This document shows positions 3,004 to 22,171 of a DNA stretch of 44,752 nt, piece by piece. Both the position numbers and the translations under genes were made by a program. This stretch comes from Clostridia bacterium (lineage in GTDB: Bacteria > Bacillota > Clostridia > Oscillospirales > CAG-272), in NCBI GenBank assembly GCA_017483125.1, contig JAFULU010000128.1, positions 1-44,752 of the forward strand, read 5' to 3'. The number at the start of each line of letters is the position of its first letter. Positions within the stretch are counted from its first letter, which is position 1. Below the pieces are notes generated by a model. That model saw only the letters and a program-made list of their open reading frames with translations, was not told where the DNA came from and did no database searches.

Positions 3004-3549
3004 GAAATGCAAAATGCAAAATGCAAAATTTATGAAGACTTTCGCTTAGGCGAAAGACAATCTTTGGGTATGGTCCATACATCAGGATACCCGAGAGGGG
3101 ACGTCCCATAGAAGTGTGTGTGGAACTTTTTTCTTCTCTCAATTACTTGATTATTGAATTGGGTTTTTCTTGCAAATAGCCGTAAGAAGAGCGATAATCT
3201 CTTTCGTGTCTGTTTCCACACTGAAAAACTGTTGGTCGGTCAGGTAATCGGTTGCGTGAAGTAACCGAAGCCAGTATCTTGTCTCGTTCGCTTCCTTAAG
3301 AGCAATATTCATCTTTGCGTAGAAATCCGCTGAAGATTGTGCTTTTTCTGCTTCTGCAATGTTGGCACCTATGCTTGTTCCGCTACGTAGAAGCTGTTTA
3401 GAAAGAACAAATTCTTTCTTACTGTCAGTCATGAAGCGGTACAGCTTAACGACTCTGATAGCAAAATGAAAGCTCTTTTCGTAGATCACATTCATGCGGG
3501 CTTATTCCTCGTTCTCCGATTTTGCATTTTGCATTTTTCATTTTGAATT
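3004..3549. mobile_element. Heptamer-array-bracketed cassette carrying a four-helix-bundle gene
   Basis: (AAAATGC)n at 3004-3030 and the inverted (ATTTTGC)n at 3519-3549 flank a low-GC ORF inside the his operon; CTTTCGC-ttag-GCGAAAG hairpin at 3039-3056. Mobility is inferred. Confidence 0.6.
3151..3495 (-). CDS. Four helix bundle protein (23S rRNA IVS-protein-like family)
   Basis: 114 aa with family signature KSFHFAIRVV...QLLRSGTSIGANIAEA...S.ADF..KMNIALKEANETRYWLRLL; visibly lower GC than neighbours. Confidence 0.9.
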   Translation of the reverse strand: MNVIYEKSFHFAIRVVKLYRFMTDSKKEFVLSKQLLRSGTSIGANIAEAEKAQSSADFYAKMNIALKEANETRYWLRLLHATDYLTDQQFFSVETDTKEIIALLTAICKKNPIQ

Positions 3550-3822
3550 TATGGCGATAGACAGCTTGTAGCCCCCCGCGCCGTATTCCAGACACTTGGA
3601 CACACGGCTGATGGTGGCGGTGCTCATGCCGGTCTCGCGGCTGATATCGGCGTAGTTGGCCCCCGCCGAGAGCATACCCGCGGCCTTGAGGCGCTGGGAA
3701 ATATCCAGGATCTCCTTGACGGTGCAGGCGTCCTCAAAGAAGGCGTAGCACTCGTCTCTGTCCTTCAGGGACAGGATGGCGTCGAACAGGGCGTCCACGT
3801 CGGGATTGTGAAGAGGTTTCAT
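3538..3822 (-). CDS. yerC: TrpR-like YerC/YecD protein, probable his-operon repressor (HisR)
   Basis: LFDAILSL..DECYAFFEDACTVKEI..ISQRL...GMSTATISRVSKCLEYG.GGY is the YerC signature; first gene of the his operon. Confidence 0.88.
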   Translation of the reverse strand: MKPLHNPDVDALFDAILSLKDRDECYAFFEDACTVKEILDISQRLKAAGMLSAGANYADISRETGMSTATISRVSKCLEYGAGGYKLSIAINSK

Positions 3823-3857
3823 AGTGTCCTTGCCGATGGCCTCGGCGTCTCCTTTAT

Positions 3858-3877
3858 CACTTTAGTGTGGTAAAAAC
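3858..3877. promoter_or_regulatory. Candidate HisR (YerC) operator
   Basis: Imperfect palindrome CACTTTAGTGTGGTAAAAAC just downstream of the his promoter start region; resembles the CACTTTA-N6-TAAAGTG-type HisR motif as I recall it. Confidence 0.55.
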
Positions 3878-3886
3878 TATTGCACC

Positions 3887-3915
3887 ATTATAATACAAAT
3901 CGTCGGTTTTGTCAA
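3887..3915 (-). promoter_or_regulatory. SigA promoter of his operon
   Basis: Minus strand TTGACA (3915-3910) - 17 nt - TATAAT (3892-3887), perfect consensus. Confidence 0.85.
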
Positions 3916-4031
3916 GCCTTTCCCGAAAAGCAGTTTGCACGAAAAGCAGGGCTTGGTTTTGTGCGAGGTGACGAAACTGTTGCGTGCGACCGAAATCTGA
4001 CTCATCCTTATATATTATTCACGAAAAATCC

Positions 4032-4060
4032 TTGCAATTTGCGAGGGGTTATGCTATAAT
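4032..4060 (+). promoter_or_regulatory. SigA promoter for lipoprotein gene
   Basis: TTGCAA - 17 nt - TATAAT with extended TG. Confidence 0.75.
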
Positions 4061-4159
4061 AGTACCATATAAGCCGGCGGGACACCTGTTTGGAGGCATT
4101 CTCTCCCCGTGACCGCCCGCTCATACCCCGACTCCGGGGCCTCAGAAAGGAGACCATCC

Positions 4160-7100
4160 ATGAAGCGCAGAAGCATTCTGATCCTTATCGCGCTGTTGAC
4201 CCTCACCCTCTGTCTGGGCCTTGCCGCCTGCAGAGGTGACGATCCCACAGCCGACACCACCGACGCCCCCACTTCCCCCGATACTCCCGACGAGAGCGGG
4301 GAAGCACCCACCGACGAGAGCACCGAGGCCCCCACTGAGGTCCCTACCGAGGAGCCCGAGCCCGATCCCGTCCCCGAGCCCATCAACCGCTCTGAGTATC
4401 CCAAGGAGCAGGCGGGTGCCAAGTCCGAGGTGGTGCTGAAGGCCGCCGACTTCGGGGTCAAGGGTGACGGCGTGACCAACGACGGTCCCGCCATTGGCCG
4501 CGCCATTGAGGCCGCCATGGAGCAGCAGGCTACCCTGCAGTTTGAGTCGGGTAAGGTCTACTACATCGGCTCCACAGACCGCAGCGCGGGTCCCTTCGGC
4601 TCTCCCTTTGCCATGCAGGGCGCTGACGGCGTCACCGTGGACGGCGGCGGCTCTGTGTTCCGCTTCGCCCCCGGTATCAGCTATTTCGCTATGACCGATA
4701 ACAGGGATGTCCGCATCTGCAACATGAAGCTGGATCTGTCGGTGTCCCCCTACCTTGTGGGTACCGTCAAGGCGGTGAACGGCGCGTACGTCACCTACAC
4801 CACCGACATCGAGCCCAACCAGGGCTTCAACGACAGCCGCGGCTACACCAATTTCTCCATTGAGTACAACGAGGGCAAGCAGGAGAGACCTCACCGGTTC
4901 ATCAACACCATGACCAAAACCGCCTCCAAGGAGATCAAGGTGGAGTACCAGACCGAGAGCCACGGTTACGCCGTGGGGGACAAGGTGTTCGTCCCCAATC
5001 CCGGCATTGGTAACGCCCTGAGCGAGATCATGTACATCGCCTCCAACACGGGCTGTATGGTCTTTGAGAACATCGAGGTCTGGGCGGCCCCCAGCTTCAT
5101 CGCCAATATCCGCGATAACGACGCCGAGCTCTACTTCGAGAACGTGGACTACATCCCCGGCGAGGAGAATGACCGCGAGATCAAGATGGTCTCCTGGCGC
5201 GACGGCTACCACGTCAAGGATAACCGCCGTCCCATCCATTGGAACGAGTGCGACGTGGGGGTTCTGTTCGACGACGTCTTCAACGTCAGCAACACCCTCG
5301 GCTACATCACCTCGGTCAAGAACGGCAACCAGATGACCGTCACCCAGTACGAGATGTACACCCACGGCTCCTACCATCCCTTCAACTGCCGCGTGGGCGA
5401 CGTCATCGAGGTGTTCAGCACCAAGGGCGTGTACGCGGGTCTGGCCACCGTTCGCCGCGTGACCCAAAACTCCAACGGCACCACGGATCTGGTGCTGGAG
5501 TACGGCGACAACCTCAAGAAGATGGAAACGGGCTGGCTGGTGGGCAACCGCGACACCTGCGCCCCCGGCTCCACCGTCACCAACTCCCGCTTCACGGGTA
5601 CCTTCCGCTTCCGCCGCGATATCCGCATCGAGAACTGCGTCTTCGATATGCTCATCACCTGGATCCGTGAGGACGGCAGCGTGGAGGGCCCCATTCCCGG
5701 TAACATCGACTACGTGGGCTGCACCTTCAACGGAGGCAGTCTCGACATCGGCGCGGCGGGCACCTCGGTGAGATCCGCCATGAAGGACATCGGCTTCTGG
5801 GGCTGTACCTTCAACGACGGGGCCAAGATCGCCAAGGGCCGTAACGTCACGGTCACCGAGGCCGACACCTGGACCGAGGAGGAGCTGTACACCTACAAGA
5901 ACCGCAAGCTGACCAAGGTTCCCGTGAACGTGGTGCCCACCGAAATGGACCTCGTCAACACCGTCACCTACGACTGGTCCTACATCCGTATGCAGGTGGA
6001 GGGCGGTAAGCTTCTGTCCCTTTCCAAGCTGGAGGATACCGCCATCCGCGAAAAGCTTCTGGCCAACGACGGCTTTGCCGACCGTGTGCTGGTGCTGACG
6101 GGCGGTGAGAACGGCACCCGCTACCTGCTGGGCGGTCTGTCCGCCGAGTTCCTCCCCGGGTTCCACGCCGAGGGCAAGTCCTATATGTTCTCCATCAACT
6201 ACTACGCCACCGCCGCGGGCGGTACCGCGGGCTTCCTCAAGGGAGACACCGCCACCGCCGTCAAGAGTAATCTCTTCGACACGGCCAACGCCATCGGGAA
6301 CGCCGCCTGCCTCTACAACCCCGAGGAGGGTGCTACGGGCTTCTATATCGAGGTTCCCGCGGGGGCTACGGTGTATATCGGTAAGGTCAATATCACCGCC
6401 ACCTCCTCCAAGAACCCCTCCACGGATCAGCTCTACAACGGCCATACCTTCATCTGGTCCAAGGATCTGACCATCGGTAAGAAGGGCGAGGCCCTGACCT
6501 ACGACGCCATTTCCGACGAGACCGTGAGAAATGCCATCCTGAACGCCGAGAGCGGCTTTACCTCGGGCGTGGTGCTCCACGTCAATGGCGCTATGGGCGA
6601 TTTCACGGGCTTTACCGACAAGGAATACTACGTGCAGGGCAAGACCTACCACCTCTCCATCGACGCCTACATCGCCTCCCCCATGGTTCCTCAGGACGGC
6701 ACCAAGATCTACCTCCTGGCCATGGACGATACCCCCGGCAACCGCTTGCTGGCCGAGGGCCTGTTCACGGGTGAGGGCTTCTACCACTTCGAGATGGACT
6801 GGACCGTGGGCAGTACCGGGGAGAAGAGCCTCAAGTTCTTCATCAACAATACCCCCGCCGCCTATGCCGACATCTACATCGGTGACTTCACCGTCACCAT
6901 GGCCAAGTCCCTCAAGCCCGACGTCTTCCTCTCCCGCAACGACTTCCACACCCTCACCCAGGAGGAGCTGAAGGCGGGCTACACCTTCGACTTCACCGAG
7001 GGCAAGCTTATGGATACGGGTGTTCTCGCCTACGCCTCCACCGCCCTTCTGCCCGAGAAGACCGCCACGCTCCTGCGCGAGAACGGCTTCGGGGATACCT

Positions 7101-7432
7101 TCTACTACGCCAACGAGAACTTTACCTTCGGCTCTCTGCCCAACAATCTGACGGGCGGCCGCAAGCTCCGCATTACCATGCAGGTCTACGACGTGCTGGG
7201 TAATCTGGCCAACACCCTGCCCCGCGGTGCCTTCGTCATGCTCCATATGCAGGGTGGCGTCCAGAACTCCGCCGAGGTCAGCTACAAGATCGAGACGGAT
7301 CCCGACAACAGCCGACTGCTGACCGTCACCTTTGATACCAACACCCCCGGCGGTACCGACGATCTGTTGTTCTACGGCCTGACCACCGTGGAGTATCTGA
7401 TCGGGTCTATCACCATCCAGCAGTTGAATTGA
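4160..7432 (+). CDS. Large lipoprotein with parallel beta-helix glycoside hydrolase-like domain (GH110-like) and repeated C-terminal modules
   Basis: Start at ATG 4160 after GAAAGGAG; lipobox LAAC; T/E/P-rich linker; DFGVKGDGVTND beta-helix N-cap; DGYH...DDVFNV resembles GH110 catalytic motif. Confidence 0.7.
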   Translation: MKRRSILILIALLTLTLCLGLAACRGDDPTADTTDAPTSPDTPDESGEAPTDESTEAPTEVPTEEPEPDPVPEPINRSEYPKEQAGAKSEVVLKAADFGVKGDGVTNDGPAIGRAIEAAMEQQATLQFESGKVYYIGSTDRSAGPFGSPFAMQGADGVTVDGGGSVFRFAPGISYFAMTDNRDVRICNMKLDLSVSPYLVGTVKAVNGAYVTYTTDIEPNQGFNDSRGYTNFSIEYNEGKQERPHRFINTMTKTASKEIKVEYQTESHGYAVGDKVFVPNPGIGNALSEIMYIASNTGCMVFENIEVWAAPSFIANIRDNDAELYFENVDYIPGEENDREIKMVSWRDGYHVKDNRRPIHWNECDVGVLFDDVFNVSNTLGYITSVKNGNQMTVTQYEMYTHGSYHPFNCRVGDVIEVFSTKGVYAGLATVRRVTQNSNGTTDLVLEYGDNLKKMETGWLVGNRDTCAPGSTVTNSRFTGTFRFRRDIRIENCVFDMLITWIREDGSVEGPIPGNIDYVGCTFNGGSLDIGAAGTSVRSAMKDIGFWGCTFNDGAKIAKGRNVTVTEADTWTEEELYTYKNRKLTKVPVNVVPTEMDLVNTVTYDWSYIRMQVEGGKLLSLSKLEDTAIREKLLANDGFADRVLVLTGGENGTRYLLGGLSAEFLPGFHAEGKSYMFSINYYATAAGGTAGFLKGDTATAVKSNLFDTANAIGNAACLYNPEEGATGFYIEVPAGATVYIGKVNITATSSKNPSTDQLYNGHTFIWSKDLTIGKKGEALTYDAISDETVRNAILNAESGFTSGVVLHVNGAMGDFTGFTDKEYYVQGKTYHLSIDAYIASPMVPQDGTKIYLLAMDDTPGNRLLAEGLFTGEGFYHFEMDWTVGSTGEKSLKFFINNTPAAYADIYIGDFTVTMAKSLKPDVFLSRNDFHTLTQEELKAGYTFDFTEGKLMDTGVLAYASTALLPEKTATLLRENGFGDTFYYANENFTFGSLPNNLTGGRKLRITMQVYDVLGNLANTLPRGAFVMLHMQGGVQNSAEVSYKIETDPDNSRLLTVTFDTNTPGGTDDLLFYGLTTVEYLIGSITIQQLN

Positions 7433-7451
7433 TCCAACACCCCTACCCCTT

Positions 7452-7483
7452 GGGACGGCAGAAATGCCGTCCCGCGTTTTTTT
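7452..7483 (+). terminator. Rho-independent terminator
   Basis: GGGACGGCA-gaaa-TGCCGTCCC followed by a T7 run. Confidence 0.85.
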
Positions 7484-7603
7484 GAAAAAAGTTTTAAGAA
7501 AACGGACAGAATCCGAAAATTTTCCTGTCCTTGTAGATGGACGGCTGATAAAGAGCCGTTCACGGTGAACGCGTTCATTCAGAGTGTATCGGTCTCATGG
7601 GAT

Positions 7604-7862
7604 TTCAAATTTGGGTTTGTCGGTGGGTTGGGTTTCCTCGTTCTATGCCTTCCCCAGCGGGGAAGGGGGACCGCAAAGCGGTGGATGAGGAGAGCAAGTT
7701 TCCGCTCGGTATCGGGTATGATTTTTCTTGGTATATCAAGGGGTTTCCGTATACATCCGTACGAAAAAACAAACCCGCTCTCCTCATCCACCACCTACGG
7801 TGGTCCCCCTTCCCCGCTGGGGAAGGCTCACGAGGAAACCCACCGCTAAACCCCAATTTGAA
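7604..7862. mobile_element. MITE/REPIN-like palindromic element (copy A)
   Basis: 24-bp imperfect terminal inverted repeats (TTCAAATTTGGGTTTGTCGGTGGG / CCCACCGCTAAACCCCAATTTGAA) enclosing an inverted REP doublet at 7647-7695 and 7777-7827. Confidence 0.75.
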
Positions 7863-7920
7863 GCCCTCCCGACCGTATACAAATCAATTTTTCGGGGGAC
7901 GCCCCGAGAAAGGAGAGACC

Positions 7921-8463
7921 ATGACCGACAGCGACATCATCCGCCTGTTCTTCGACCGTGACGAGCAGGCCATCGCCGAGACGGCGGAAAAGTACGGCAA
8001 ATACTGCATGACCATCGCCCGGGACATCCTGGACAGCGAGCAGGACGCCGAGGAGTGTGTCAGCGACGTCTACCTCAAGGCGTGGAACAGCATCCCGCCC
8101 GACGAGCCTGCCTCCCTCAAGGCCTATATCGCCGTCCTGACCCGCCGCCTGTCCATCAACCGCTACCACGAGAGCCGCGCCGCCAAGCGCAACCGGGAGC
8201 TGGAGGTGGCCTTTGAGGAGCTGGAGGCCTGCATCCCCGCTCCCGAGGAGGCGGCGGAGGAGCTGCCCGAGCTGCTCAACGAATTCCTGGCGGGGCTGAA
8301 GGAAACCGACCGCCGCCTCTTCGTCCGCCGCTACTGGTACGCCATGATGCCCGCCGAGCTGGCAAAGCGCGAGGGCATGACCGTCAACGCCGTCACGGTG
8401 AGGCTCTACAAGACGAGAAACAAGCTCCGAAAATTTTTGGAAGAAAGGGGTTATAAAGTATGA
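7921..8463 (+). CDS. ECF RNA polymerase sigma factor
   Basis: MTDSDIIRLFFDRDEQAI...DAEECVSDVYLKAWNSIPP...DRRLFVRRYWY...VTVRLYKTRNKLRKFLE; GAAAGGAG RBS before ATG 7921 (the ORF-track extension runs through the repeat element). Confidence 0.92.
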   Translation: MTDSDIIRLFFDRDEQAIAETAEKYGKYCMTIARDILDSEQDAEECVSDVYLKAWNSIPPDEPASLKAYIAVLTRRLSINRYHESRAAKRNRELEVAFEELEACIPAPEEAAEELPELLNEFLAGLKETDRRLFVRRYWYAMMPAELAKREGMTVNAVTVRLYKTRNKLRKFLEERGYKV

Positions 8464-9554: not shown

Positions 9555-9570
9555 TCCTCCGCATGACCCC

Positions 9571-11115: not shown

Positions 11116-11910
11116 ATGAAAAAGCTGTTGCTCTTCGCCCTGATCCTGACCCTCGCCCTGTGCGTGGCCGCTTGCGATAAGGCTCCCGCCGAGACTCCCA
11201 CCGATGCTCCTACGGAGACCCCCACCGAGGCACCCACCGAAGCACCCACCGACGCCCCCACCGAGGAGCCTACCGAAGCTCCTACCGAGGCCCCCACCGA
11301 GGCTCCTACCGAGACCCCCACCGAGGAGCCCACCGAGGAGCCCACCGAGGCTCCCACCGACGCGCCCGCCGATCCCGTTGAGCCTACTGCCCTCTACACC
11401 GCCGAGCAGCTGGCCGCCATGGTGCCCGCCAACGCCACCGTGACCCTGGAGGGGGACTACGCCCACTTCCTCACCGGCACCGCCGACACCATGACCAACC
11501 CCTCCGTCACCCTCGTGGCCGATGAGGAGGCCTTCAGCGATATCATCGTCATCAAGTACCGCACCAACTGCGGCAGCTACGGCTCCAACTTCTGGGGCAC
11601 CCTCCTGCTCAACGGCACCGCCGAGTTCAACGGCAACCGCCGCGACAGCGATAACTGGTTCTACTACGCCACCGACGGCTCCTGGAACGTTCTGATCCTG
11701 GACATGAGAAAGAACAAGCAGGGCTCCGAGGGCACTCCCGACACCGACGTGACGGGCGGCGCGGCCATTGATTCGGTGGTCTACAACTTCTTTGACTATG
11801 CCGGCAACGACGGCAAGCTCGCCACCGCCGACGGCGGCGAGGAGTACTTCGATATCGAGTACATCGCCTTCTTCAACACCAAGGAGGAGGCCCAGTCCTA
11901 CGCGGGCTGA
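11116..11910 (+). CDS. Lipoprotein with (PTEA)n linker and C-terminal beta-sandwich-like domain
   Basis: Signal peptide with lipobox VAAC; tandem PTEA/PTEE repeats; IIVIKYRT ... YFDIEYIAFF C-terminal domain; AAGGAG RBS. Confidence 0.8.
   Translation: MKKLLLFALILTLALCVAACDKAPAETPTDAPTETPTEAPTEAPTDAPTEEPTEAPTEAPTEAPTETPTEEPTEEPTEAPTDAPADPVEPTALYTAEQLAAMVPANATVTLEGDYAHFLTGTADTMTNPSVTLVADEEAFSDIIVIKYRTNCGSYGSNFWGTLLLNGTAEFNGNRRDSDNWFYYATDGSWNVLILDMRKNKQGSEGTPDTDVTGGAAIDSVVYNFFDYAGNDGKLATADGGEEYFDIEYIAFFNTKEEAQSYAG
11185..11370 (+). repeat. 12-bp coding tandem repeat (PTEA/PTEE/PTDA)
   Basis: About 14-15 degenerate CCCACCGAGGCN units in the lipoprotein linker. Confidence 0.85.
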
Positions 11911-12662: not shown

Positions 12663-13664
12663 ATGGCCAAGACTACCGCAAAAGCCCCCCTCGACCGCCG
12701 CAAGCTCACGGGCCAGCTCCTCTCCCTCGGCACGCTGGTTTTGCTGTTCGTGATGCTGAACCTCACCGTGTTCTTCGTCTTCACCCGCCGCTGTCTCCCC
12801 GCCACCAGCGAGGGGATGCAGGCCAAGTCGGTGGAGCTGGGGGCCTACCTGCCCTTTGAGGAGGACTCCAGGATCGTCAAGCTCGACGGCTCCCTGAAAC
12901 TCACCGAAGACCTCCCCGTCATCGACGGCGCGGCGGCCCTCTACCCCATTTTCTCGGGCTTCGTGAACGCCGTCTACCCCGACGACAGCGTCCATTTTGA
13001 CGGCGAAAACTTCACCCCCGACAGCGCACTCCAATACACCAACACCCGCGGCGCCTACAAGGGCATCGTAGACGGCACCGTGGATATCGCCATCTGCGTA
13101 GCCCCCTCGGAGGAGCAGCTGGCCTATGCCAAGGAGAAGGGCGTGGAGCTGGAATTCACCCCCATCGGCAGGGAAGCCTTCGTGTTCTTTGTCAACAAGG
13201 ACAATCCCGTGGACGGTCTCACCACCGAGCAGCTGCGGGGCATCTACGCGGGGGAGTACCGCAACTGGTCGGAGGTGGGAGGCGACAACACCCACATTGC
13301 CGTCCTCCAGAGAAACGCGGGGAGCGGCAGTCAGTCCGCCCTCCTGAACTTCATGGGGGACACCCCCGTGAAGACCGACTATCTCACCTTCATGGGCCGC
13401 TCCATCGGCTTCTCCTTCCGCTTCTACGTGGAGGGCATGGTGGGAAAAGACTCCCCCGAGGGCGGAGTGAAGCTCCTGGCTCTGGATGGGGTCTATCCCG
13501 ACACCGAGAACATCAAGAACGGCTCTTACCCCATCATCAACGAGCTGTACGCTGTTACCCGCAAGGGGGAGGAAAACCCCAATGTACAGGCCTTCGTGGA
13601 TTGGATGCTGACCGAGGAGGGGCAGGCCATCGTGGAGGGGTCGGGGTACGTGGGGATGGAGTAA
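12663..13664 (+). CDS. PstS-like phosphate-binding (PBP superfamily) membrane-anchored protein
   Basis: IDGAAALYP, PIGREAFVFFVNKDNPV..LT.EQLRGIYAG...NWSEVGG, QRNAGSGSQ, ENIKNGSYP motifs; N-terminal TM. Confidence 0.85.
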   Translation: MAKTTAKAPLDRRKLTGQLLSLGTLVLLFVMLNLTVFFVFTRRCLPATSEGMQAKSVELGAYLPFEEDSRIVKLDGSLKLTEDLPVIDGAAALYPIFSGFVNAVYPDDSVHFDGENFTPDSALQYTNTRGAYKGIVDGTVDIAICVAPSEEQLAYAKEKGVELEFTPIGREAFVFFVNKDNPVDGLTTEQLRGIYAGEYRNWSEVGGDNTHIAVLQRNAGSGSQSALLNFMGDTPVKTDYLTFMGRSIGFSFRFYVEGMVGKDSPEGGVKLLALDGVYPDTENIKNGSYPIINELYAVTRKGEENPNVQAFVDWMLTEEGQAIVEGSGYVGME

Positions 13665-13714
13665 ATGCAAAATGCAAAATGTCCTCGCTTCGCTCGGCGG
13701 AACGGCTGAAACGT

Positions 13715-13754
13715 AAAAAGAGGTGTCTTACCCGATGGGGCGAGACACCTTTTT
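13715..13754. terminator. Bidirectional terminator
   Basis: A5-g-AGGTGTCT...AGACACCT-T4 between convergent genes. Confidence 0.75.
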
Positions 13755-13756
13755 CG

Positions 13757-14272
13757 TTATTGGATATGGAGCTTTTTCGGGTCGATCACCGTCCGCAGGA
13801 GGGTGCGGAAGTCGGCTTCGTTGCCCTCGGTGAAGCCGTTCTTCGCCACAAGCTGGGCTTGTTTTTCGGCTATGTACAGGAAATAATAGTCGGGGCACTC
13901 GGTGACGCGCAGGATCGCATCATACGTATGTGGCGTGGGCTCGCGGCCCTGCTCTCCGTAGGTGTAGCCGTCCTGCGTAAAGGTAAAGGTGAATACCAAT
14001 TTGCGGGAAGCGATCCGCCAAGCCGTGATCTTGGGCAAAAGCATGAGAATCGGGCACCCCAGCGTTACGATGGAGGTGCAGATCACCACGAGATAGGTGA
14101 TAAGATCTCCCCATCCCCACGCGATGGACAGAAGCCCACGCACGGCGGGAATCGCGCTGAGGATCATCAGCACGGTCAGGAGTATCAGCGTCTTTTTGTC
14201 GGAGGCGTTGCTTTGAGACAAAAAGGCTGTGACGGCTTTATACGTCATGGGGGTGGTGTTTCGGATCTCCAT
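13757..14272 (-). CDS. YcxB-like membrane protein (paralog 2)
   Basis: Two TM helices then FTFT.DG...Y..I.RVTE..DYYFLYI....AQLV.KNGF; start at ATG 14272 behind GAAAGGAA. Confidence 0.8.
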   Translation of the reverse strand: MEIRNTTPMTYKAVTAFLSQSNASDKKTLILLTVLMILSAIPAVRGLLSIAWGWGDLITYLVVICTSIVTLGCPILMLLPKITAWRIASRKLVFTFTFTQDGYTYGEQGREPTPHTYDAILRVTECPDYYFLYIAEKQAQLVAKNGFTEGNEADFRTLLRTVIDPKKLHIQ

Positions 14273-14292
14273 AGCGGTTCCTTTCGTGGTAC

Positions 14293-14832
14293 TCAATGAA
14301 TATGGAGCTTTTTGGGGTCGATCACCGTCCGCAGGAGGGTGCGGAAATCGGCTTCGTTGCCCTCGGTAAAGCCGTTCTTGTCCACGATGTGGGCGGCGTT
14401 GGGGGCGATGAATAGGTAGAAGTAGTGCTCGGATTCGGTGACCTTGACGATGACGCTATAGCCACACTGCTGCTGCTCCTTGAGGGCCTTGGAGACGGTG
14501 GACTGCTCGAAGCCTTCCTCGGTGAAGATGTAGTCGACCACGCTCTCCTGGTCAGCCTGCTTGCAGGCGGTGCGCTTGACGGTAATGGGGACGACGGTGC
14601 TGTAGCCGATATAGATGATGAGGAGGACGATCATCGCGGCGATCATGGTGGGGGACAGGTAGGGATCTTCACCCAAAAGGAATAAGAGACACTGACTGAA
14701 CAGGAAAAACACCAGAGCGCCTATGGCGATCAGGCAAAGGATGTTGATCAACCTGCGGGTCTTGCGGCGGAAGGTCTTGTTGAACTCAATGATACAGTCG
14801 TGGGTGTAGGGGGTGGTGTTTTTGATTTCCAT
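14293..14832 (-). CDS. YcxB-like membrane protein (paralog 1)
   Basis: Two TM helices then YIFTEEG...YS.IVKVTESEHYFYLFI....AHIVDKNGF; GAAAGGAG RBS. Confidence 0.8.
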   Translation of the reverse strand: MEIKNTTPYTHDCIIEFNKTFRRKTRRLINILCLIAIGALVFFLFSQCLLFLLGEDPYLSPTMIAAMIVLLIIYIGYSTVVPITVKRTACKQADQESVVDYIFTEEGFEQSTVSKALKEQQQCGYSVIVKVTESEHYFYLFIAPNAAHIVDKNGFTEGNEADFRTLLRTVIDPKKLHIH

Positions 14833-14939: not shown

Positions 14940-14968
14940 ATTATACCACACTCCGCTCATCCTGTCAA
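14940..14968 (-). promoter_or_regulatory. SigA promoter for YcxB pair
   Basis: Minus strand TTGACA - 17 nt - TATAAT with extended TG. Confidence 0.8.
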
Positions 14969-15033
14969 CTCTCTATTGTCCGTATCCGTTCCCCAATTTT
15001 GCATTTTGCATTCTGCATTTTGCATTCTAACAA

Positions 15034-15079: not shown

Positions 15080-15757
15080 TTACAGCGTCTCCATGGTATT
15101 CTGCACCAGAGAGATATTCAGGTTGCCGTTACGCATACGGAGCTCGTCGAGGAACTCCTTTTCCTGCTTCTTGTCCTTCATGACGATGCGGTAGTCCAGC
15201 TCCAGAAGGGTGCCGTAGTCCTGGGTCTTGATGCGGTTGAGGTGGTAGTAGCGGCAGTAGGTCTTCAGCACGGGGTCGAAAACGCCGTCATAGTCCAGGG
15301 ACTCGGGGATGAGGATGCGGAGTCGCTTGCCGGTGCCGCCGAAGCGGTCGATGCCGATGAGGTTGAGCAGGATGATGAAGAGGAGGAGCAGGCCGATGGC
15401 GATAGCGCCGAAGCCGATGAAGCCCACGCCACAGGCGATACCGGCGGCGATGGAGATGTAGTAGTAGATGATGTCGCGGGGATCCTCCACCGTGTTACGG
15501 AAGCGGATCAGCGCCAGACCGCCGCCGATGGAGATAGCGCGGGCGATATTGGAGCCGATACAGATGACGATGATGGCCACGGCAGGGCCCAGGAGCATCA
15601 TGGTGAAGAGCATGGCGGGGCGGAAGCCGGTGCGGCGGTGGGTGAACATATAGACCAGCATGATGGCCACCGAGAGGCCGAGGGCACAGCCCATGACGGT
15701 GAGGGCGTGGCCGAGGGTGATGACGGTGATATCAATGGATTCCAGAATGTGATTCAT
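15080..15757 (-). CDS. DUF4956-family membrane protein
   Basis: IGSNIARAISIGGGLALIRFRNTVEDPRDI; C-terminal EFLDELRMRNGNL; usual partner of VTC-domain genes; GGAGG RBS before ATG 15757. Confidence 0.85.
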   Translation of the reverse strand: MNHILESIDITVITLGHALTVMGCALGLSVAIMLVYMFTHRRTGFRPAMLFTMMLLGPAVAIIVICIGSNIARAISIGGGLALIRFRNTVEDPRDIIYYYISIAAGIACGVGFIGFGAIAIGLLLLFIILLNLIGIDRFGGTGKRLRILIPESLDYDGVFDPVLKTYCRYYHLNRIKTQDYGTLLELDYRIVMKDKKQEKEFLDELRMRNGNLNISLVQNTMETL

Positions 15758-15774
15758 GGTAGCTTCCTCCAAAT

Positions 15775-16533: not shown

Positions 16534-16810
16534 GCTGCCTCCTTTCCGCTTTTTTAGAGCCGCTCGGTATTCTGCTTGGTGGGGTACAAGAGACCCCAAT
16601 TAAGCACATTATATAGGTAATATGTGACGAAAATTTGAACAATCATGGAAAAAGGTGCGAATTTACAGATTATTTACCGAATTTCAAAGCCTCGGCGGCA
16701 GATACGGATGATTTCGGCTTGACCGCCATGTTTTTCAAGGGCTACCGAGACCGAAACGGCGCACACTAACGGATGCAAACACCGTTTTTGACCGAAAGGA
16801 GCCTCAAACC

Positions 16811-17620
16811 ATGTACGATCCCGATCCCATTTCCCGCTTCCATAAGCTCATAGCCGCCCTGCTCTCGGCCCTCTTCCTGCTCTCGACCCTGGCCCTCCCC
16901 GCCCAGGCCAAGGGGACGGGCTGGTACTGCGTCCGCGCCAAAAACCACCTCCAGCCCGTGGCCGACCCGCCCCTTCGGGAGGTGGAGAAGTACGGCGGCT
17001 ACTATATTGACCACAGCCACACCGACCCGAAGGGCGACGACAAGGTGGTCTACCTCACCTTTGACGCGGGCTACGAGAACGGCAACGTAGCCAAGGTGTT
17101 GGACGTCTTGCAGGCCGAGGGGACCACGGGGGCCTTCTTCATCCTGGGTAACCTCCCCGAAAAGAACCCCGATTTGGTGCGCCGTATGGCTACCGAGGGG
17201 CATCTGGTCTGCAACCATACCTTCACCCATAAGAACCTCTGCGGGGCCTCCGCGGGGGCGCTGACCGCCGAGCTGAAGCGGTTGGAGGAGGCCTGTACCG
17301 CCATCGGGGTGAATGTCGCCCCCTACTACCGTCCCCCCGAGGGATGCTTCGACGAGGCCATGCTCCGCGAGGCCCAGACGGCGGGGTACAAGACGGTCTT
17401 CTGGAGCTTCGCCTACGCCGATTGGGACAACCAAAAGCAGCCCGATCCCGCCGCCGCGAAGGCTCGGATCCTGGACAATCTCCACAACGGCGCGGTGATC
17501 CTGCTCCACCCCACCTCGGCTACCAACGCCGCCATTCTGGGGGAGGTTCTGCGGGAGATGAAGACCCTGGGCTACCGCTTCGGGACCCTGGACGAGCTGA
17601 CGGGAGGTGAGGGAAATTGA
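16811..17620 (+). CDS. pdaA: Polysaccharide deacetylase, PdaA-like (spore cortex delta-lactam N-deacetylase)
   Basis: VYLTFDAGYENG, NHTFTH, YYRPPEG, FWSFAYADW, LHNGAVILLH..S.TNA are PdaA-type motifs; signal peptide. Confidence 0.8.
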   Translation: MYDPDPISRFHKLIAALLSALFLLSTLALPAQAKGTGWYCVRAKNHLQPVADPPLREVEKYGGYYIDHSHTDPKGDDKVVYLTFDAGYENGNVAKVLDVLQAEGTTGAFFILGNLPEKNPDLVRRMATEGHLVCNHTFTHKNLCGASAGALTAELKRLEEACTAIGVNVAPYYRPPEGCFDEAMLREAQTAGYKTVFWSFAYADWDNQKQPDPAAAKARILDNLHNGAVILLHPTSATNAAILGEVLREMKTLGYRFGTLDELTGGEGN

Positions 17621-18582
17621 CACCGGATCGAAACGGCGGAAAAGCGAATTCCATCAATGACTTTTCAAGCTACGGAAAAGGGCGGCTCGGCTGGATATCG
17701 GCGGCGGTTCTGTTCACCGCGCTGGTAGTTTTGGCCCTCCTTGTAGCCGTCCGCACAAGGGCTGACGGGGGGGTGGAAAACGGCTGGCGGGTGCACCATA
17801 TCGGGGAGGAGGGATCGGTGTCCGACGCCGTCTCCGAGTCGGTGGTAGAGGGCATTCCCGCCGCCCTGTATCCTGCCTATCCCTCCCCCTTCCGCCCCCT
17901 GCCCGAGCCCGCCGAGAGCGAGTCGGTGACCGTGCCCGAAACCGAGACCGAAACGGTCAAGGACGGGGATGAGATGATCTACCACAGCCGCCACAACGAC
18001 CGAATGGAGATCGCCCTGTCCTTCGACGACGGCCCCCACCCGCGGCTGACCCCCGTCATTCTGGACATCCTCGCGGAGTACGGCATCAGGGCCACCTTCT
18101 TCATGGTGGGGGAGAACGTGGGCTACTACCCCGCCGCCGCCCGCGCTGTGGCCGAGGCGGGTCACGAGATCGGCAACCACACCTTCTCCCACCGCAAGTT
18201 CGACCGCATGGGGGAGGAGGATCTCCGCCGTGAGATCAGCTCCTGCGAGGAGGCCATCGCCTCGGTATCCGACACCCCCGTCCGCTTCATCCGTCCTCCC
18301 GAGGGGCAGATGAGCGACACCATGCGGCGGGTCATCGGAGCCTCGGACTATCGGGTCATCCTCTGGGACGTGGATACCCGCGACTGGGCCCACACCCCGC
18401 CCGCCGAGATCACCCGCCACATTCTGGATACGGTACAGGCGGGGGACATCATCCTCATGCACGATTTCATCGGCTACGACAGCCCCACCCCCGAGGCCCT
18501 GCGCCTTGTGATCCCCGCCCTCCTGGAGCGCGGATACCGCTTTGTCACGGTGGGAGAGCTGGTGGACGAGGGACGTCCGTGA
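17617..18582 (+). CDS. Polysaccharide deacetylase (CE4), membrane anchored
   Basis: ALSFDDGP, ATFFMVG, HEIGNHTFSH, IRPPEG, WDVDTRDW, GDIILMHD. Confidence 0.9.
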   Translation: MTPDRNGGKANSINDFSSYGKGRLGWISAAVLFTALVVLALLVAVRTRADGGVENGWRVHHIGEEGSVSDAVSESVVEGIPAALYPAYPSPFRPLPEPAESESVTVPETETETVKDGDEMIYHSRHNDRMEIALSFDDGPHPRLTPVILDILAEYGIRATFFMVGENVGYYPAAARAVAEAGHEIGNHTFSHRKFDRMGEEDLRREISSCEEAIASVSDTPVRFIRPPEGQMSDTMRRVIGASDYRVILWDVDTRDWAHTPPAEITRHILDTVQAGDIILMHDFIGYDSPTPEALRLVIPALLERGYRFVTVGELVDEGRP

Positions 18583-18589
18583 TCCCGAT

Positions 18590-18644
18590 ACCGCTTCCGA
18601 CCGTTCGGCACACCGAGCCGTATGGTTGGGAGCGGTTTTCTTTT
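18590..18644 (+). terminator. Rho-independent terminator
   Basis: ACCGCTTCCGACC / GGTTGGGAGCGGT stem plus TTTCTTTT. Confidence 0.7.
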
Positions 18645-18697
18645 GCGGATAAATGTAAATATTATATAAATTTTTTATCAGTCGCCCGCATAGGGTG

Positions 18698-18726
18698 TTG
18701 CAAAACGTAGATGCTTATGGTATAAT
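18698..18726 (+). promoter_or_regulatory. SigA promoter of cdaA operon
   Basis: TTGCAA - 17 nt - TATAAT with extended TG. Confidence 0.7.
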
Positions 18727-18795
18727 AAAAATTACCTTTTATGATGGGTAAATATGTATAATAATATACAAAATACAGGGAAAGGCGGTGGCGTG

Positions 18796-20007
18796 ATGAC
18801 CGAAACTACCATGAATTTTCAAACCTTTATTGACCAGTACATACTGTACCCGTGGGAGACCTTCCGCTTCATAGACGTGCTGGATTGGCTGCTCATGACG
18901 CTGCTGATCTACTGCGTGTGTATGCTGTTCCGAGGCCGTGCGGCGGCCCGTATGGGGGGCGGCCTTCTGGCCATTTTCGCGGTTTCCCTCATTGCCGAGC
19001 AGTTGGGTATGTCGGGACTCCACTCCATTATGGCCGCTGTCACTCCCTACACCGTCATCCTCCTGGCGGTCATCTACCAGCCCGAGCTTCGTGACGCCCT
19101 GGCCCGTATCGGCAGCTTCATCACCATGTTCCGCAAGAAGAAGCATCCCCGCGAGGCCGAGATGGAGAACACCATCCACGTTGTGGTGGACGCCGCCTGC
19201 CAGATCGCCCAGACCGAAAAGGACGGCGCCCTCATCGTCCTGGAGCTGTTCCAGAACGTGGACGAGTACATCGACAAGGGCTACGCCCTGGATATGGAGG
19301 TAGACCGCCACATCCTCTGCCAGATGTTCAAGGACAAGACCCTGTTCCACGACGGAGCCGTGGTGGTCCGCAACAACCGCATCGTCATGGCGGGCTGTAA
19401 GCTCCCCCTCCGCAAGAACGGAGAGGTGGTGGACGGTCTGGGTACCCGTCACCGCGCCGCCGTGGGGATCACCGACGTCACCGACTGCGTGGTGGTGGTG
19501 GTATCCGAGGAGAGCCACAAGATCTCCATTGCCAACCACGGTAACATCGAGCGTGACTTCAACCAGTCGGGAGACGAGCTTCGCAACCCCGAGGCCCGTC
19601 AGCGAATCGAAAAGAGTCTTCGCCGCGCTCTGTACAATATGCTCATCGGTCTGGAGATCGCCGACCGCACCAATGCCGAGGAGAGCCGCGTGCAGGTGCG
19701 CTTCAAGTGGGGCTTCAATCTGGACGCCGAGGACCGCGAGCGTATCAACAAGGAGCGCGAGAAGCAGAACACCGATCTGGAGAAGTTCGAGAAGACCTAC
19801 AACAGATTGGCCAAGAAAAAGGCGACCCGTACCGTGACCGTGGAGGTCACCGACGAGGAGGACGCCGAAGAAATCACCGAGGAGACCGTGACAGTACCCG
19901 CCCCTCCCTCCGAGGACAACGCGGGGATGCCCTCCATCTCCCTGACTCCCCCCGATCTGACCACCGCCGCCAAGGAAGCGGACGGCGACGCCTCGGACGA
20001 GGCATGA
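18796..20007 (+). CDS. cdaA: Diadenylate cyclase CdaA (DacA) with long C-terminal extension
   Basis: N-terminal TMs, YQPELRDAL, GALIV, FHDGA and GTRHRAAVG catalytic motifs, VVVSEE. Confidence 0.88.
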   Translation: MTETTMNFQTFIDQYILYPWETFRFIDVLDWLLMTLLIYCVCMLFRGRAAARMGGGLLAIFAVSLIAEQLGMSGLHSIMAAVTPYTVILLAVIYQPELRDALARIGSFITMFRKKKHPREAEMENTIHVVVDAACQIAQTEKDGALIVLELFQNVDEYIDKGYALDMEVDRHILCQMFKDKTLFHDGAVVVRNNRIVMAGCKLPLRKNGEVVDGLGTRHRAAVGITDVTDCVVVVVSEESHKISIANHGNIERDFNQSGDELRNPEARQRIEKSLRRALYNMLIGLEIADRTNAEESRVQVRFKWGFNLDAEDRERINKEREKQNTDLEKFEKTYNRLAKKKATRTVTVEVTDEEDAEEITEETVTVPAPPSEDNAGMPSISLTPPDLTTAAKEADGDASDEA

Positions 20008-20037
20008 TCGCCCCCATTTTGGAAAGGACCAACACAT

Positions 20038-20286
20038 ATGGCACGTTTGAAGCTGTACCGCAAGCCCGGCAAGAAGTACAAGACCGAGCTGCGCCCCTCC
20101 CGTATTGATATTCTGATACTCCCCCTCCTGCTCTGCTTTCTGGGGTCCATCGTGCTCTGGTGCTACGTAACGGGACATAACCGCCCCGAGACCGAGACCG
20201 AGCCTCCCGCCGCGGAGACCACCGTTCCCGCCGAGGAGACCGAGGAGTCCGCTCCCGAGACCGAGGCCCGGCCCTCCGAGGTATGA
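20038..20286 (+). CDS. Small single-TM protein, CdaR N-terminus-like without YbbR domains
   Basis: LLCFLGSIVLWCYVTGHNRP resembles the CdaR anchor; sits directly after cdaA; E/T/P-rich tail; GAAAGGA RBS. Confidence 0.65.
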   Translation: MARLKLYRKPGKKYKTELRPSRIDILILPLLLCFLGSIVLWCYVTGHNRPETETEPPAAETTVPAEETEESAPETEARPSEV

Positions 20287-21917
20287 GCGGTAGCCTTTGC
20301 CGCGAGGCCATGATCGAGGGCGTGTCGGTGCCCGTGGGAACCCCCGAGGCCGATGTCCTCCAAAGAGCCTTGCAGAAGCTGAAAAAGAGCGGACTCCCCC
20401 ACAAGGGGGTGACCCTCCGCCTCTACAAAAAGTCGGTGGACGCCCGTAAGCGGGAGGAGATCCGACTGGTCTACTCGGTGCTGGCCACCCTCCCCGAGGG
20501 GAAGACCTTCTCCGAGGATCAGCTGACCCGAGCGGGCTTCAAGCCCCACTCCCCCACAGCCCTGACCCTGACCCACGGCACGGCGGTGCTCCCCGCCCGT
20601 CCCCTGGTGGTGGGCATGGGCCCCGCGGGTCTGTTCTGCGCCTACATCCTGGCCAAGGAGGGCTATGCCCCTATCCTCATCGACCGCGGAGACAGCGTAG
20701 CCGACCGTGTGAAGTCGGTGGAGACCTTCTACACCGAGGGACGGCTGGACACCGAGTCCAACATCCAGTTCGGCGCGGGAGGAGCGGGCACCTTTTCCGA
20801 CGGTAAGCTCCTGACCCGCATCAACGACGCCCGCTGCGCCTTCGCGCTGGAGACCCTCCGTGACATGGGGGCACCCGCCGACATCACCCTCCAGGCCAAG
20901 CCCCATGTGGGCACCGACGTGCTCCGTACCGTGGTGCAGACCATGCTGGATACCGTCGCCTCTCTGGGCGGTGAGGTGATCTACCGCTGTCGGCTGGACG
21001 GCTTTGACCGTCACCCCGACGGAAGCTTTACCGCCAAGACCTCCAAGGGGGACATCCCCTGCGGCGTGATCGTCCTCGCCCCCGGGCACAGCGCCAGAGA
21101 TACCTACCGTATGCTGCTGGAAAAAAACGTCATGCTGGAGCCCAAGCCCATTTCGGTGGGGGTGCGCATCGAGCATTTGCGAAGCGATATGGATGCCATG
21201 CTCTACGGCTCCATGGCGGGTCATCCCGATCTGGGGGCCGCCGAGTACCACCTGTCCGACACCAAGGGGGAGAGAGGGGTCTACACCTTCTGCATGTGTC
21301 CCGGCGGTGAGGTGGTGGCCGCCGCCTCCGAGGAGGATACCGTGGTGGTCAACGGCATGAGCCACCGCGCCCGCAACGGGATGAACTCCAACGCCGCCAT
21401 CGCGGTGTCGGTCCGCACCACCGATTACGAGCCCGTAGAGGGGAGCCTCGTGCTGGGTGCCATTGCCTACCAACGCCGTATTGAGCGAGCCGCCTTCGTA
21501 GCGGGAGGGGGAGACTACTCCGCCCCCGTCCAGACCGTGGGGGACTTTCTGGAGGGTGACCGCGCCATCCACGAGCCGACCCGCGTCAAGCCCTCCTACA
21601 TGGGAGGTGACCGCTACCGCCTCGCTCCCGTCAGCAAGACCCTGCCCGAGTACGTCTGTCAGTCCCTGCGCTACGGCCTGCGCTCCTTTGACCGCAAGGT
21701 CAGGGGCTACGCCATGCCCGAGGCTGTTCTGTCCGCCGCCGAGACCCGTACCTCGGCTCCCGTCCGCATCCTGCGCGGTAGCGACTTCTGCGCCGTAGGC
21801 AACCCCGGCATCTACCCCTGCGGGGAGGGCGCGGGCTACGCGGGAGGCATCACCTCCGCCGCCGTGGACGGCATCAAGGTGGCCGAGGCCATTCTGTCGG
21901 TCTACGCGCCGCTGTAA
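20283..21917 (+). CDS. FAD-dependent oxidoreductase (COG2509-like)
   Basis: VVGMGPAGLF, NIQFGAGGAGTFSDGKL, KPHVGTD, TFCMCPGG, ETRTSAPVRI, YPCGEGAGYAGGITSAAVDG. Confidence 0.9.
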   Translation: MSGSLCREAMIEGVSVPVGTPEADVLQRALQKLKKSGLPHKGVTLRLYKKSVDARKREEIRLVYSVLATLPEGKTFSEDQLTRAGFKPHSPTALTLTHGTAVLPARPLVVGMGPAGLFCAYILAKEGYAPILIDRGDSVADRVKSVETFYTEGRLDTESNIQFGAGGAGTFSDGKLLTRINDARCAFALETLRDMGAPADITLQAKPHVGTDVLRTVVQTMLDTVASLGGEVIYRCRLDGFDRHPDGSFTAKTSKGDIPCGVIVLAPGHSARDTYRMLLEKNVMLEPKPISVGVRIEHLRSDMDAMLYGSMAGHPDLGAAEYHLSDTKGERGVYTFCMCPGGEVVAAASEEDTVVVNGMSHRARNGMNSNAAIAVSVRTTDYEPVEGSLVLGAIAYQRRIERAAFVAGGGDYSAPVQTVGDFLEGDRAIHEPTRVKPSYMGGDRYRLAPVSKTLPEYVCQSLRYGLRSFDRKVRGYAMPEAVLSAAETRTSAPVRILRGSDFCAVGNPGIYPCGEGAGYAGGITSAAVDGIKVAEAILSVYAPL

Positions 21918-21950
21918 GGACGGCGATCGGAGATGAGTCACGTTTCGTTG

Positions 21951-22171
21951 AATTCGCAATTCGTAATGCGTAATTCGTAATTGCGGGAGCCTTTCGCTGA
22001 AGCGAAAGCCGATTCATTAGTGATTCGAAAGAAATTCTGTTCTTGAAAATTTGTTGTCCATCAGGGGAAATTCCGCTATATGGAGTTAGCCCCCTTGCCA
22101 TACGATCATATTTTACCAACGGCAAGATGTTTCGTTCATTACGAATTACGAATTGCGAATTGCGAATTGCG
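21951..22171. repeat. Heptamer-array-bracketed non-coding element
   Basis: Five AATTCGY-type units at 21951-21985 and inverted (RCGAATT)4 within 22137-22171; CTTTCGC-tgaa-GCGAAAG hairpin at 21991-22008. Confidence 0.8.

Follow-up and report, generated by a model that had tools for sequence, protein, structure and literature searches.

To our knowledge, no function has been assigned to the S23p, or '23S rRNA intervening sequence protein', family, although structures have been solved and its members number in the thousands; Pfam places these proteins in PF05635. Tandem repeats with a unit of seven bases, known in cyanobacteria (GGGGAYT) under the name 'STRR', form a second puzzle. A study of 7,006 prokaryotic genomes ranks tandem heptamers first in abundance among intergenic tandem repeats, and offers 'no clear clue' to their function (10.1101/309039). 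Xanthomonas has GGGAATC arrays in 70-75 convergent pairs, which keep their places from one species to another and were reportedly not linked to mobile elements (PMC4692102). A close match to the cassette examined here comes from Coxiella, where, according to PMC4990558, an S23p open reading frame (ORF) occupies the loop of a 428-444-nt intervening sequence (IVS) in helix 45 of 23S rRNA. The terminal stem of this IVS is 28 bp long, its 5′ arm consists of three tandem GACAGAT heptamers and a degenerate fourth, and RNase III cleavage was mapped within the stem; intervening sequences with S23p ORFs are also described there for Leptospira and Brucella. Here we analyse a 44,752-nt stretch of DNA from a Clostridia bacterium (contig JAFULU010000128.1, 'the window'), in which a sequence-only reading had picked out three loci with inverted heptamer arrays as cassettes of differing cargo. 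We consider it probable that locus 1 is an IVS-type cassette outside ribosomal RNA, that locus 3 belongs to its miniatures, and that locus 2 is a false third case.

Locus 1 is a promoterless four-helix-bundle gene between heptamer arms

The window is contig C67 of a 3.50-Mb genome (G000; 384 contigs, 58.5% G+C), a fragmented metagenome-type assembly of 98.9% completeness and 4.4% contamination, so all copy counts given for it are lower bounds. Period-7 arrays of the window were called with Tandem Repeats Finder, which recovered all six arrays that had been placed by the sequence-only reading, the right array being the reverse complement of the left at each of the three loci (Table 1). The ORF enclosed at locus 1 encodes a PF05635 protein (23S rRNA intervening sequence protein; E = 2.8e-30, 105 bits against a Pfam cut-off of 33.8) that also belongs to TIGR02436 ('four helix bundle protein', 1.2e-33) and matches the Protein Data Bank (PDB) structure 2rld, an entry deposited as five chains, at 5.4e-39. 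It contains the RxxxSxxxNxxE motif, which is described for the four-helix-bundle family in PMC3936711.

The gene is promoterless: merely 23 nt, including the ribosome-binding site, lie between the 5′ arm and the start codon, and no promoter fits into so short a gap. The arms are ~25-32 nt long in a unit of ~550 nt and pair with each other in the minimum-free-energy fold (z = -3.0); those of locus 3 also pair on folding (z = -5.1). On the plus strand, AAAATT ends at 3030 and is followed by 8 nt (3031-3038) and a hairpin in the 3′ untranslated region of the gene. The arrangement of AATT, 8 nt and CTTTCGC-N4-GCGAAAG that had been noticed at loci 1 and 3 is indeed present at both.

The unit lies in the sense orientation between co-directional host genes, a TrpR-like gene upstream and a HisRS-like/hisZ-like gene downstream, the ATG of the latter being 17 nt from the 3′ arm. 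It substitutes for the end of the upstream gene, as the stop codon of the TrpR-like ORF (3538-3822, minus strand) falls at 3538-3540, inside the array. At locus 2, the stop codon of a PBP-like ORF (12663-13664, plus strand) at 13662-13664 overlaps the array that starts at 13663, which agrees with the earlier observation of such overlaps at two loci. The cassette is not inserted in a 23S rRNA gene; its neighbours are housekeeping genes, and Rfam at gathering thresholds returned 0 matches across the window, hence no rRNA match. A comparison of the three proteins from the cargo ORFs of the window with PADLOC defence families gave no match. An RNase III gene is encoded in this genome. Locus 1, which combines heptamer arms with a PF05635/TIGR02436 gene that has no promoter and with a hairpin on the 3′ side, is a true cassette.

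Four other PF05635 genes are present in the same genome (C29:9590-10150, C49:1395-1950, C287:3800-4560 and C153:240-800). Each adjoins a fold-back in which mini-hairpins of 12-17 nt alternate with heptamers (GTGAAAT, GTGAAGT, GTGATGT and their complements), and which looks like an array with small hairpins inserted between its units.

The cassette architecture recurs across phyla

Scanning species genomes with the 114-aa protein of locus 1 yielded 78 loci of 51-79% identity in Oscillospiraceae, Acutalibacteraceae, Ruminococcus (including the isolate R. flavefaciens FD-1), Bacteroidales, Cytophagales, Flexilinea/Leptolinea and Acidaminococcaceae. Arms were scored by local alignment of the upstream flank with the reverse complement of the downstream flank, where a score of at least 35 and a 7-nt periodicity of at least 0.6 were required; the maxima of shuffled sequences were ~17-30. 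Inverted period-7 arms surround the gene in 64 of the 78 relatives, with a median arm of 33 nt (interquartile range 32-35) and a median arm-to-arm unit of 464 nt. The four-helix-bundle gene is the characteristic cargo of the family. When full 1.5-kb flanks were used, 57/80 real intervals passed the test, compared with 2/160 intervals shifted by 1 kb. The related loci are partly orthologous, so they were also counted per host site: the 64 arm-bearing loci represent 32 distinct sites, where the upstream gene is co-oriented in 19, opposite in 2 and unclear in 11, and the downstream gene is co-oriented in 19, opposite in 3 and unclear in 10. The heptamers vary by lineage (AATGCGT, AATTCGG, AATGCGG, AAATGCG, AATTATG, AAATAAG and others). 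An evenly drawn phylum-wide sample contained the family in 32 of 151 genomes; 13 of the 28 testable best loci passed the arm test and about six more have weaker period-7 arms.

In finished isolate plasmids, inverted heptamer arrays also surround a gene annotated as 'four helix bundle protein'; these plasmids are from Treponema saccharophilum, Euhalothece natronophila, Bernardetia sp. and Nostoc punctiforme (PCC 73102, plasmid pNPUN01). Plasmid pANACY.01 of Anabaena cylindrica PCC 7122 features the gene between cas2 and cas1, with heptamer arrays (GTAAAAA-type) on both sides, the adjacent pair of which is not inverted. The heptamers of these four plasmid cassettes and of Anabaena are mutually unrelated. 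Across the loci found, cassette-type genes with inverted ~33-nt heptamer arms occur in Bacillota, Bacteroidota, Spirochaetota, Cyanobacteriota and Chloroflexota. Insertions such as that in Anabaena may explain why surveys list the four-helix-bundle family as CRISPR-associated. The 18 such genes within cas loci that are reported in PMC3936711, for example between cmr3 and cmr2, are consistent with an element landing between the genes of an operon, and heptamer cassettes might be misread as CRISPR-like arrays or cas-associated genes.

Most copies in the genome are ORF-less miniatures

Across G000, Tandem Repeats Finder reported 361 period-7 rows, of which 249 have at least 3 copies, compared with 2 after shuffling; at this copy number, no other period is as common. 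Five A/T-rich units predominate (AAAATGC 131, AAGATAC 74, AATTACG 26, AATAATG 16 and AAGAGTG 8). At least 87 adjacent same-unit arrays form inverted pairs of invariant polarity (43:0, 29:0, 10:0, 4:0 and 1:0), and the arrays in these pairs, with medians of 4.6 copies and 32 nt, equal cassette arms elsewhere. The scan upholds the suggestion that the loci belong to one family of fold-back units, while they can no longer be regarded as separate finds, being three of at least 87 paired elements. Inner spacers of the 76 same-unit pairs listed cluster at 13-35 nt and 111-145 nt, and just two of these pairs, window loci 1 and 2, have spacers of more than 200 nt. Of 131 AAAATGC arrays, 86 belong to pairs, 16 stand alone and the other 29 are close to contig ends.

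The AAAATGC and AATTACG families have one directional core in common. On one side, the arm is followed by 8-9 nt, the hairpin and TATTTTATGGTA; on the other, CGTTCYYNG precedes the arm, a motif of the locus 1 leader that is retained beside one arm in ORF-less copies. Array-adjacent hairpins stand at 8 nt from the array in 29/46 cases and at 9 nt in 12/46, the 8-nt spacing being a family trait, and a scan of the family consensus showed the hairpin to be terminator-like on both strands. A TATGGTA motif beside the hairpin was considered as a promoter and discarded, since the consensus scan found none in the canonical copy and the motif is a resemblance only.

Locus 3, which has no ORF inside, and about 85 further pairs are short, ORF-less units with terminal inverted repeats (TIRs) and inner spacers of 13-197 nt. 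The canonical miniature aligns to cassettes over the arm, the hairpin and ~30 nt (90% identity to the G011 cassette, 80% to locus 1) and again over the leader stub and the other arm, while its middle 75 nt have no match. Locus 3 is an ORF-less derivative, and arms, leader stub and hairpin end are the parts that the miniatures have retained; the full-length heptamer-armed form codes for the four-helix-bundle protein alone. One AATTACG-type ORF-less element lies ~300 nt from the RNase III gene (G000:C321:1286-1447 and 1740-2129).

Calling gene context by ORF length left 59/84 pairs unclear at the high G+C content of this genome and was replaced by a call based on G+C at third codon positions, which was checked on five Pfam-supported genes. 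The 84 pairs with spacers shorter than 250 nt then comprised 53 classifiable, 11 unclear and 20 at contig edges. Co-directional genes flank 44 of the 53, divergent genes 6 and convergent genes 3, and the orientation of the ORF-less core relative to the genes shows no bias (9 versus 7). For five elements of relatives, the orthologous site in G000 is also occupied. Array copy number varies between orthologous copies, and in one pair (G000:C46:2166-2384 and G011:C25, L166) the core has opposite orientations within the arms, an outcome to be expected if the inverted arms recombine.

Shared sites show gain, loss and decay

At the trpR-hisZ-like site of locus 1, nine loci were anchored on both sides. 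The cassette is present in G000 and G011 (83% identity), and that of G015 is split over two contigs. In G013, one arm and the leader remain, fused to the start codon of the hisZ-like gene. The site is empty in six of the nine anchored loci (G016, G005, G010, G018, G017 and G002), which feature a 75-100-nt spacer and a longer TrpR C-terminus.

The anchors of locus 3, an FAD-dependent gene and recJ, are 385 nt apart in this genome, and 9/13 doubly anchored congeners have a plain spacer without a repeat element there. G010 has an outer-repeat element (see below) and a stub of an AATTACG arm at this site, G044 a different heptamer-armed element (AAGTGAC/AAGATAC) and G018 a solo 8-mer array. Upstream of recJ, a conserved motif, CGATCGGAGAACGAGCATCGG, is followed by a GC-rich hairpin in all congeners examined (L092-L106). 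Degenerate extra copies of CGATCGGAGAACGAGCATCGG flank the locus 3 element in the window (21926-21945, 22186-22205 and 22219-22240) and look as though the insertion brought a local duplication with it.

A further series comes from one Ruminococcus site, at which R. flavefaciens FD-1 carries a cassette, with both anchors in 30 loci. Full cassettes occupy 11 of these and belong to three heptamer types (TAATKCG 5, TAATKCA 2 and GAATKCG 4). Five loci are short, two of them with a palindromic heptamer scar; three have the right arm alone, one has the left arm alone, and one has an internal deletion that kept the 3′ end of the ORF between arm remnants. The remaining loci carry GC-rich palindromic repeats. 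Protein identity tracks heptamer type: proteins of one type are 74-99% identical, and those of the GAATKCG group share 66-76% with the rest. Between L206 and L209 on the one hand and L205 and L208 on the other, CG has changed to CA/TG in nearly every unit of both arms, which could reflect homogenisation of the units or parallel deamination at a methylated site.

In the occupied Ruminococcus alleles, the stop codon of the upstream gene comes from the element (GAT TAA versus GAC TGA). Arms frequently start at, or provide, the stop codon of the upstream gene, both in relatives (L087/L205 and their kin) and in the window. Since 7 is not divisible by 3, units with a TAA place a stop in each of the three frames within 21 nt, and such stops may render insertion at gene ends harmless. 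Taken across these genomes, the comparison shows that the unit is gained and lost as a block at the DNA level, and that it then decays by deletion between or within its arms to solo arms, palindromic scars and ORF-less forms.

Locus 2 brings together resident genes and two separate arrays

The two ORFs of locus 2 (13757-14296 and 14293-14832, both on the minus strand) encode YcxB proteins (PF14317; E = 7.9e-11 and 2.2e-12) and have a TTGACA-17-TATAAT promoter of their own at ~14950-14978 (minus strand) and a terminator at ~13715-13755. Congeners have the YcxB gene or genes, the promoter and the terminator at the same site, at identities down to 77-79%. The arrays vary separately. On the left, G005, G010, G016 and G011 have an AAAATGC-type array, G017 and G002 an AATGCAG-type one, and G008, G018 and G041 none; on the right, G005 has an array, G017 and G002 have none, and G018 has an outer-repeat element instead. 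G017 and G002 therefore keep a YcxB gene and a left array although the right array is missing. The YcxB genes were accordingly rejected as cargo, and with them the claim that cargo differs between the loci: locus 2 consists of resident host genes between two separately evolving arrays, and its apparent 1.3-kb cassette is a coincidence of two family members. The motif reported near the left array of locus 2, CGCTTCGC, does follow that array; a hairpin equivalent to those of loci 1 and 3 is absent there, and both inner junctions of the locus are of the leader type without a hairpin.

RNA stem or protein-binding arms

Under the reading that we favour, the IVS-type cassette would be transcribed by read-through from the host operon, as its anatomy suggests. 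The two arms, which are able to pair on folding, would form a stem of ~25-33 bp, and RNase III would cut this stem by analogy with the rRNA-borne relatives, for which cleavage is experimentally established. Cleavage would free the cassette RNA and separate the flanking cistrons.

Several observations weigh against this account. Across the arms of 78 loci, 2318/2578 aligned positions are Watson-Crick pairs; the 260 mismatches show no excess of G.U on the sense strand (GT+TG 30 versus AC+CA 41) and are mostly an uncompensated G/T at one position of the unit (G-A 79, T-C 60). For 13 orthologous cassettes, RNAalifold predicted local hairpins within each arm and no long-range arm-arm stem. Four public runs, two labelled RNA and two DNA, consist of assembled contigs that are broken at the arrays; one RNA-library contig covers 3005-3545, which is not proof of transcription, and joints that skip ~480-700 nt are compatible with other copies or with relatives that have empty sites. 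Coverage of the family is uneven, as 14/78 relatives and 15/28 phylum-wide loci failed the arm test and the other four PF05635 genes of G000 are not enclosed by tandem arrays. The proposed alignment of sister genomes brought out occupied, decayed and empty alleles; it gave no precise junction and no target-site duplication at the locus 1, locus 3 and Ruminococcus sites, where the compared genomes are 77-93% identical and small duplications could have been erased. A mobilase serving the elements, which the sequence-only reading had thought might be encoded elsewhere, was not found: no transposase-encoding parent has the same ends, and the sole transposase beside the repeat system is an IS30-like gene that interrupts one element. 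A search of the G000 genome with RVT_1 (PF00078) gave 0 matches and hence no reverse transcriptase partner. Finally, two orthologous copies are ~98-100% identical between G000 and G011 or G005, compared with 87-95% in their 420-nt flanks. Such conservation in place of many old copies fits host function and selfishness equally well.

The uncompensated G/T position is not predicted by a purely RNA-stem model and, like the missing G.U bias and the local hairpins of RNAalifold, keeps alive an alternative that we think unlikely but the most serious of the three: that the arms are putative iterated protein-binding sites in DNA, where the pentameric four-helix-bundle protein or a recombinase reads about five heptamers per end, and that the ends are complementary only because the same protein reads both in inverted orientation, as with the terminal repeats of transposons. 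An arm length of ~4.6 units in distant lineages with unrelated heptamers would suit such reading, as would the pentamers in which relatives crystallise (the five chains of 2rld and, according to PMC4990558, a homopentameric Xanthomonas homologue). At the Ruminococcus site, three heptamer types pair with three protein lineages, and each altered position of the unit is altered throughout both arms, in every unit; since protein and arms are linked and evolve together, however, co-variation is expected even without binding. This genome also has 74 AAGATAC and 26 AATTACG arrays, yet no enclosed four-helix-bundle gene of those types. Binding of the arms is, moreover, compatible with RNA processing.

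Less probable still, in our view, is that the elements are structural repeats in the service of the host (as terminators, insulators or elements of mRNA stability, comparable to repetitive extragenic palindromic (REP) sequences or the Xanthomonas GGGAATC pairs) which arose by slippage and inverted duplication and in which the gene is an occasional passenger. The better conservation of orthologous ORF-less copies than of their flanks, the terminator-like consensus hairpin, the prevalence of co-directional neighbours among the classifiable pairs (44/53) and the precedent of the conserved Xanthomonas pairs all speak for host service. A passenger gene is difficult to reconcile with the association of PF05635 genes with arms in 57/80 intervals against 2/160 controls, across phyla and with unrelated heptamers, or with miniatures that have the leader and the 3′ end of the cassette. 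Presence and absence also vary, with different elements at the same intergenic site in congeners, and copies of one subfamily at non-orthologous positions in G011 are up to 97% identical to a G000 copy, compared with 77-92% for host DNA.

We find it highly improbable that the unit is retro-mobile, with the Avd-like protein recruiting a reverse transcriptase to copy the excised fold-back RNA and the copy being integrated near stop codons: the protein is in the fold family of Avd, the accessory protein of diversity-generating retroelements (DGRs) and partner of their reverse transcriptase, and the hairpin, with its 4-nt loop and constant spacing from the arm, is reminiscent of the one next to DGR targets, but a 98.9%-complete genome has no RVT_1 match, no A-tract, target duplication or template/variable repeat pair was seen, and a phage collection gave only two protein records (42-47% identity), the examined one of which (MT835815, 42%) is without arms.

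An outer inverted repeat and further features of the window

Many heptamer-armed copies in G000 are enclosed in a further, outer inverted repeat, TTCAAATTTGGGTTTATCGG, which has 539 matches genome-wide at up to 3 mismatches and 0 in 1 Mb of shuffled sequence. A contig end is within 400 nt for 246 of the 539 termini, so that the family breaks up the assembly. None of the three window loci has this outer repeat. Elsewhere in the window the system is found at 7604-7860, 37605-37763 and 27580-27596. Its units of 35-350 nt enclose heptamer-armed cores, GC-rich palindromic arms or almost nothing, and ~200 copies of the GC-arm subfamily match one query. On contig C3 (101-1427), a single-copy IS30-like transposase gene with a 334-aa open frame and a DWEGD motif lies inside the arm of an outer-repeat element; it was rejected as a parent transposon, being a single-copy interruption of the element.

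Two other tandem repeats of the window, with a 12-nt unit x16 (78% match) at 11180-11372 and a 48-nt unit x3.7 at 41476-41652, have in-frame periods, are G+C-rich and coding-looking, and are unrelated to the heptamer arrays.

Table 1. Heptamer arrays, hairpins, genes and outer-repeat elements of the window
Feature	Position	Strand	Sequence or content	Remark
Locus 1 left arm	3005-3030 (Tandem Repeats Finder 3005-3029)		(AAATGCA) x3.6, 100% match	3′ arm in gene sense
Locus 1 hairpin	3039-3056		CTTTCGC (3039-3045)-TTAG-GCGAAAG (3050-3056)	3′ untranslated region of cassette gene
Locus 1 four-helix-bundle gene	3151-3495	-	114 aa, PF05635
Locus 1 leader and ribosome-binding stretch	3496-3518	-		Between 5′ arm and start codon
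Locus 1 right arm	3519-3550		(ATTTTGC) x4.6 on plus strand, 88% match	5′ arm in gene sense
Outer-TIR element (TTCAAATTTGGGTTT..)	7604-7860		GC-rich arms in place of heptamers	Outside the three loci
Locus 2 left array	13663-13681		(AAATGCA) x2.7, 100% match	Overlaps stop of PBP-like gene
Locus 2 YcxB-like gene pair	13757-14832	-	ORFs 13757-14296 and 14293-14832
Locus 2 right array	14996-15026		(ATTTTGC) x4.4, 91% match
Locus 3 left arm	21951-21982		(AATTCGT) x4.6, 88% match
Locus 3 ORF-less core	21983-22137		79-80% identity to 160-nt cores of the AATTACG family on other contigs
Locus 3 hairpin	21991-22008		CTTTCGC (21991-21997)-TGAA-GCGAAAG (22002-22008)	8 nt past AATT ending at 21982
Locus 3 right arm	22138-22171		(ATTGCGA/ATTACGA) x4.9, 96% match
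Second outer-TIR element	37605-37763		Short GC-rich arms

Significance and comparison with known systems

The cassette joins two puzzles, the function of the S23p protein and the period-7 intergenic repeats, in one testable hypothesis about a widespread selfish or domesticated RNA/DNA element, whose ORF-less copies can number hundreds per genome. Many 7-base tandem repeats of bacterial genomes that have gone unexplained may be due to the cassette family. Taken to its full extent, the hypothesis would make heptamer arrays for the most part remnants or arms of a single ancient class of fold-back cassettes, spread across phyla, that encode an S23p/Avd-like protein, with the rRNA IVS as its best-known special case and a pentamer that recognises its own arms of about five units, as DNA or as an RNA stem cut by RNase III, to propagate or protect the element. 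We put this forward tentatively and think it rather doubtful in so broad a form. If the pentamer does recognise its own arms, this would be the first function for the S23p protein family. In practical terms, the repeats fragment short-read assemblies and rewrite the 3′ ends of host genes. We found no paper that ties PF05635 genes to flanking inverted heptamer arrays; subscription journals and supplements lay outside the search, and an earlier description is possible.

Among known systems, an integron gene cassette features one direct attC site and is served by IntI, whereas each unit here, on inspection, has two inverted arms. The DGR accessory protein Avd is a small basic oligomer of the four-helix-bundle fold family, and PF05635 is reportedly mentioned in a review of DGRs (PMC10053308). 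The cassette differs in having no reverse transcriptase, template or variable repeat near its gene or elsewhere in this genome; the gene lies inside inverted heptamer arms. Correia elements of Neisseria are miniature inverted-repeat units that become RNase III substrates once transcribed. The elements described here are similarly short and ORF-less, with terminal inverted repeats, a high copy number and intergenic positions in which they would often be co-transcribed, and their arms would give a double-stranded RNA stem. Unlike Correia elements, they show neither a target-site duplication nor a transposase-encoding parent, and their arms are tandem heptamers that differ between subfamilies with one core. 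Measured against miniature inverted-repeat transposable elements in general, they share the short, ORF-less, multi-copy inverted repeats and show neither the duplication nor the parent.

The heptamers of Xanthomonas and cyanobacteria are, like those described here, genome-wide intergenic period-7 arrays with many convergent inverted pairs and a variable copy number. They were interpreted as G-quadruplex formers and reportedly not linked to S23p genes or mobile units, whereas the units in this 58.5% G+C genome are A/T-rich and cannot form quadruplexes, and a protein-coding full-length form has been identified for them.

The likeness to the RNase III-excised intervening sequences of 23S rRNA, which the sequence-only reading had pointed out, is close. 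Judging by PMC4990558, the Coxiella IVS and the cassette encode the same protein family in units of similar length (428-444 nt in Coxiella, a median of 464 nt here), and inverted repeats enclose the ORF in both, as a 28-bp stem with tandem heptamers in the former and as ~33-nt arms in the latter. The copy number of the arm heptamers also varies, between Coxiella strains as among the copies described here. RNase III cleavage is mapped for Coxiella and predicted for the cassette. Whereas the rRNA-borne units lie in helix 9, 25 or 45 of 23S rRNA, the cassette lies between protein-coding genes of an operon, both of its arms consist entirely of heptamers, and it belongs to a family with at least 87 paired elements in a single genome.

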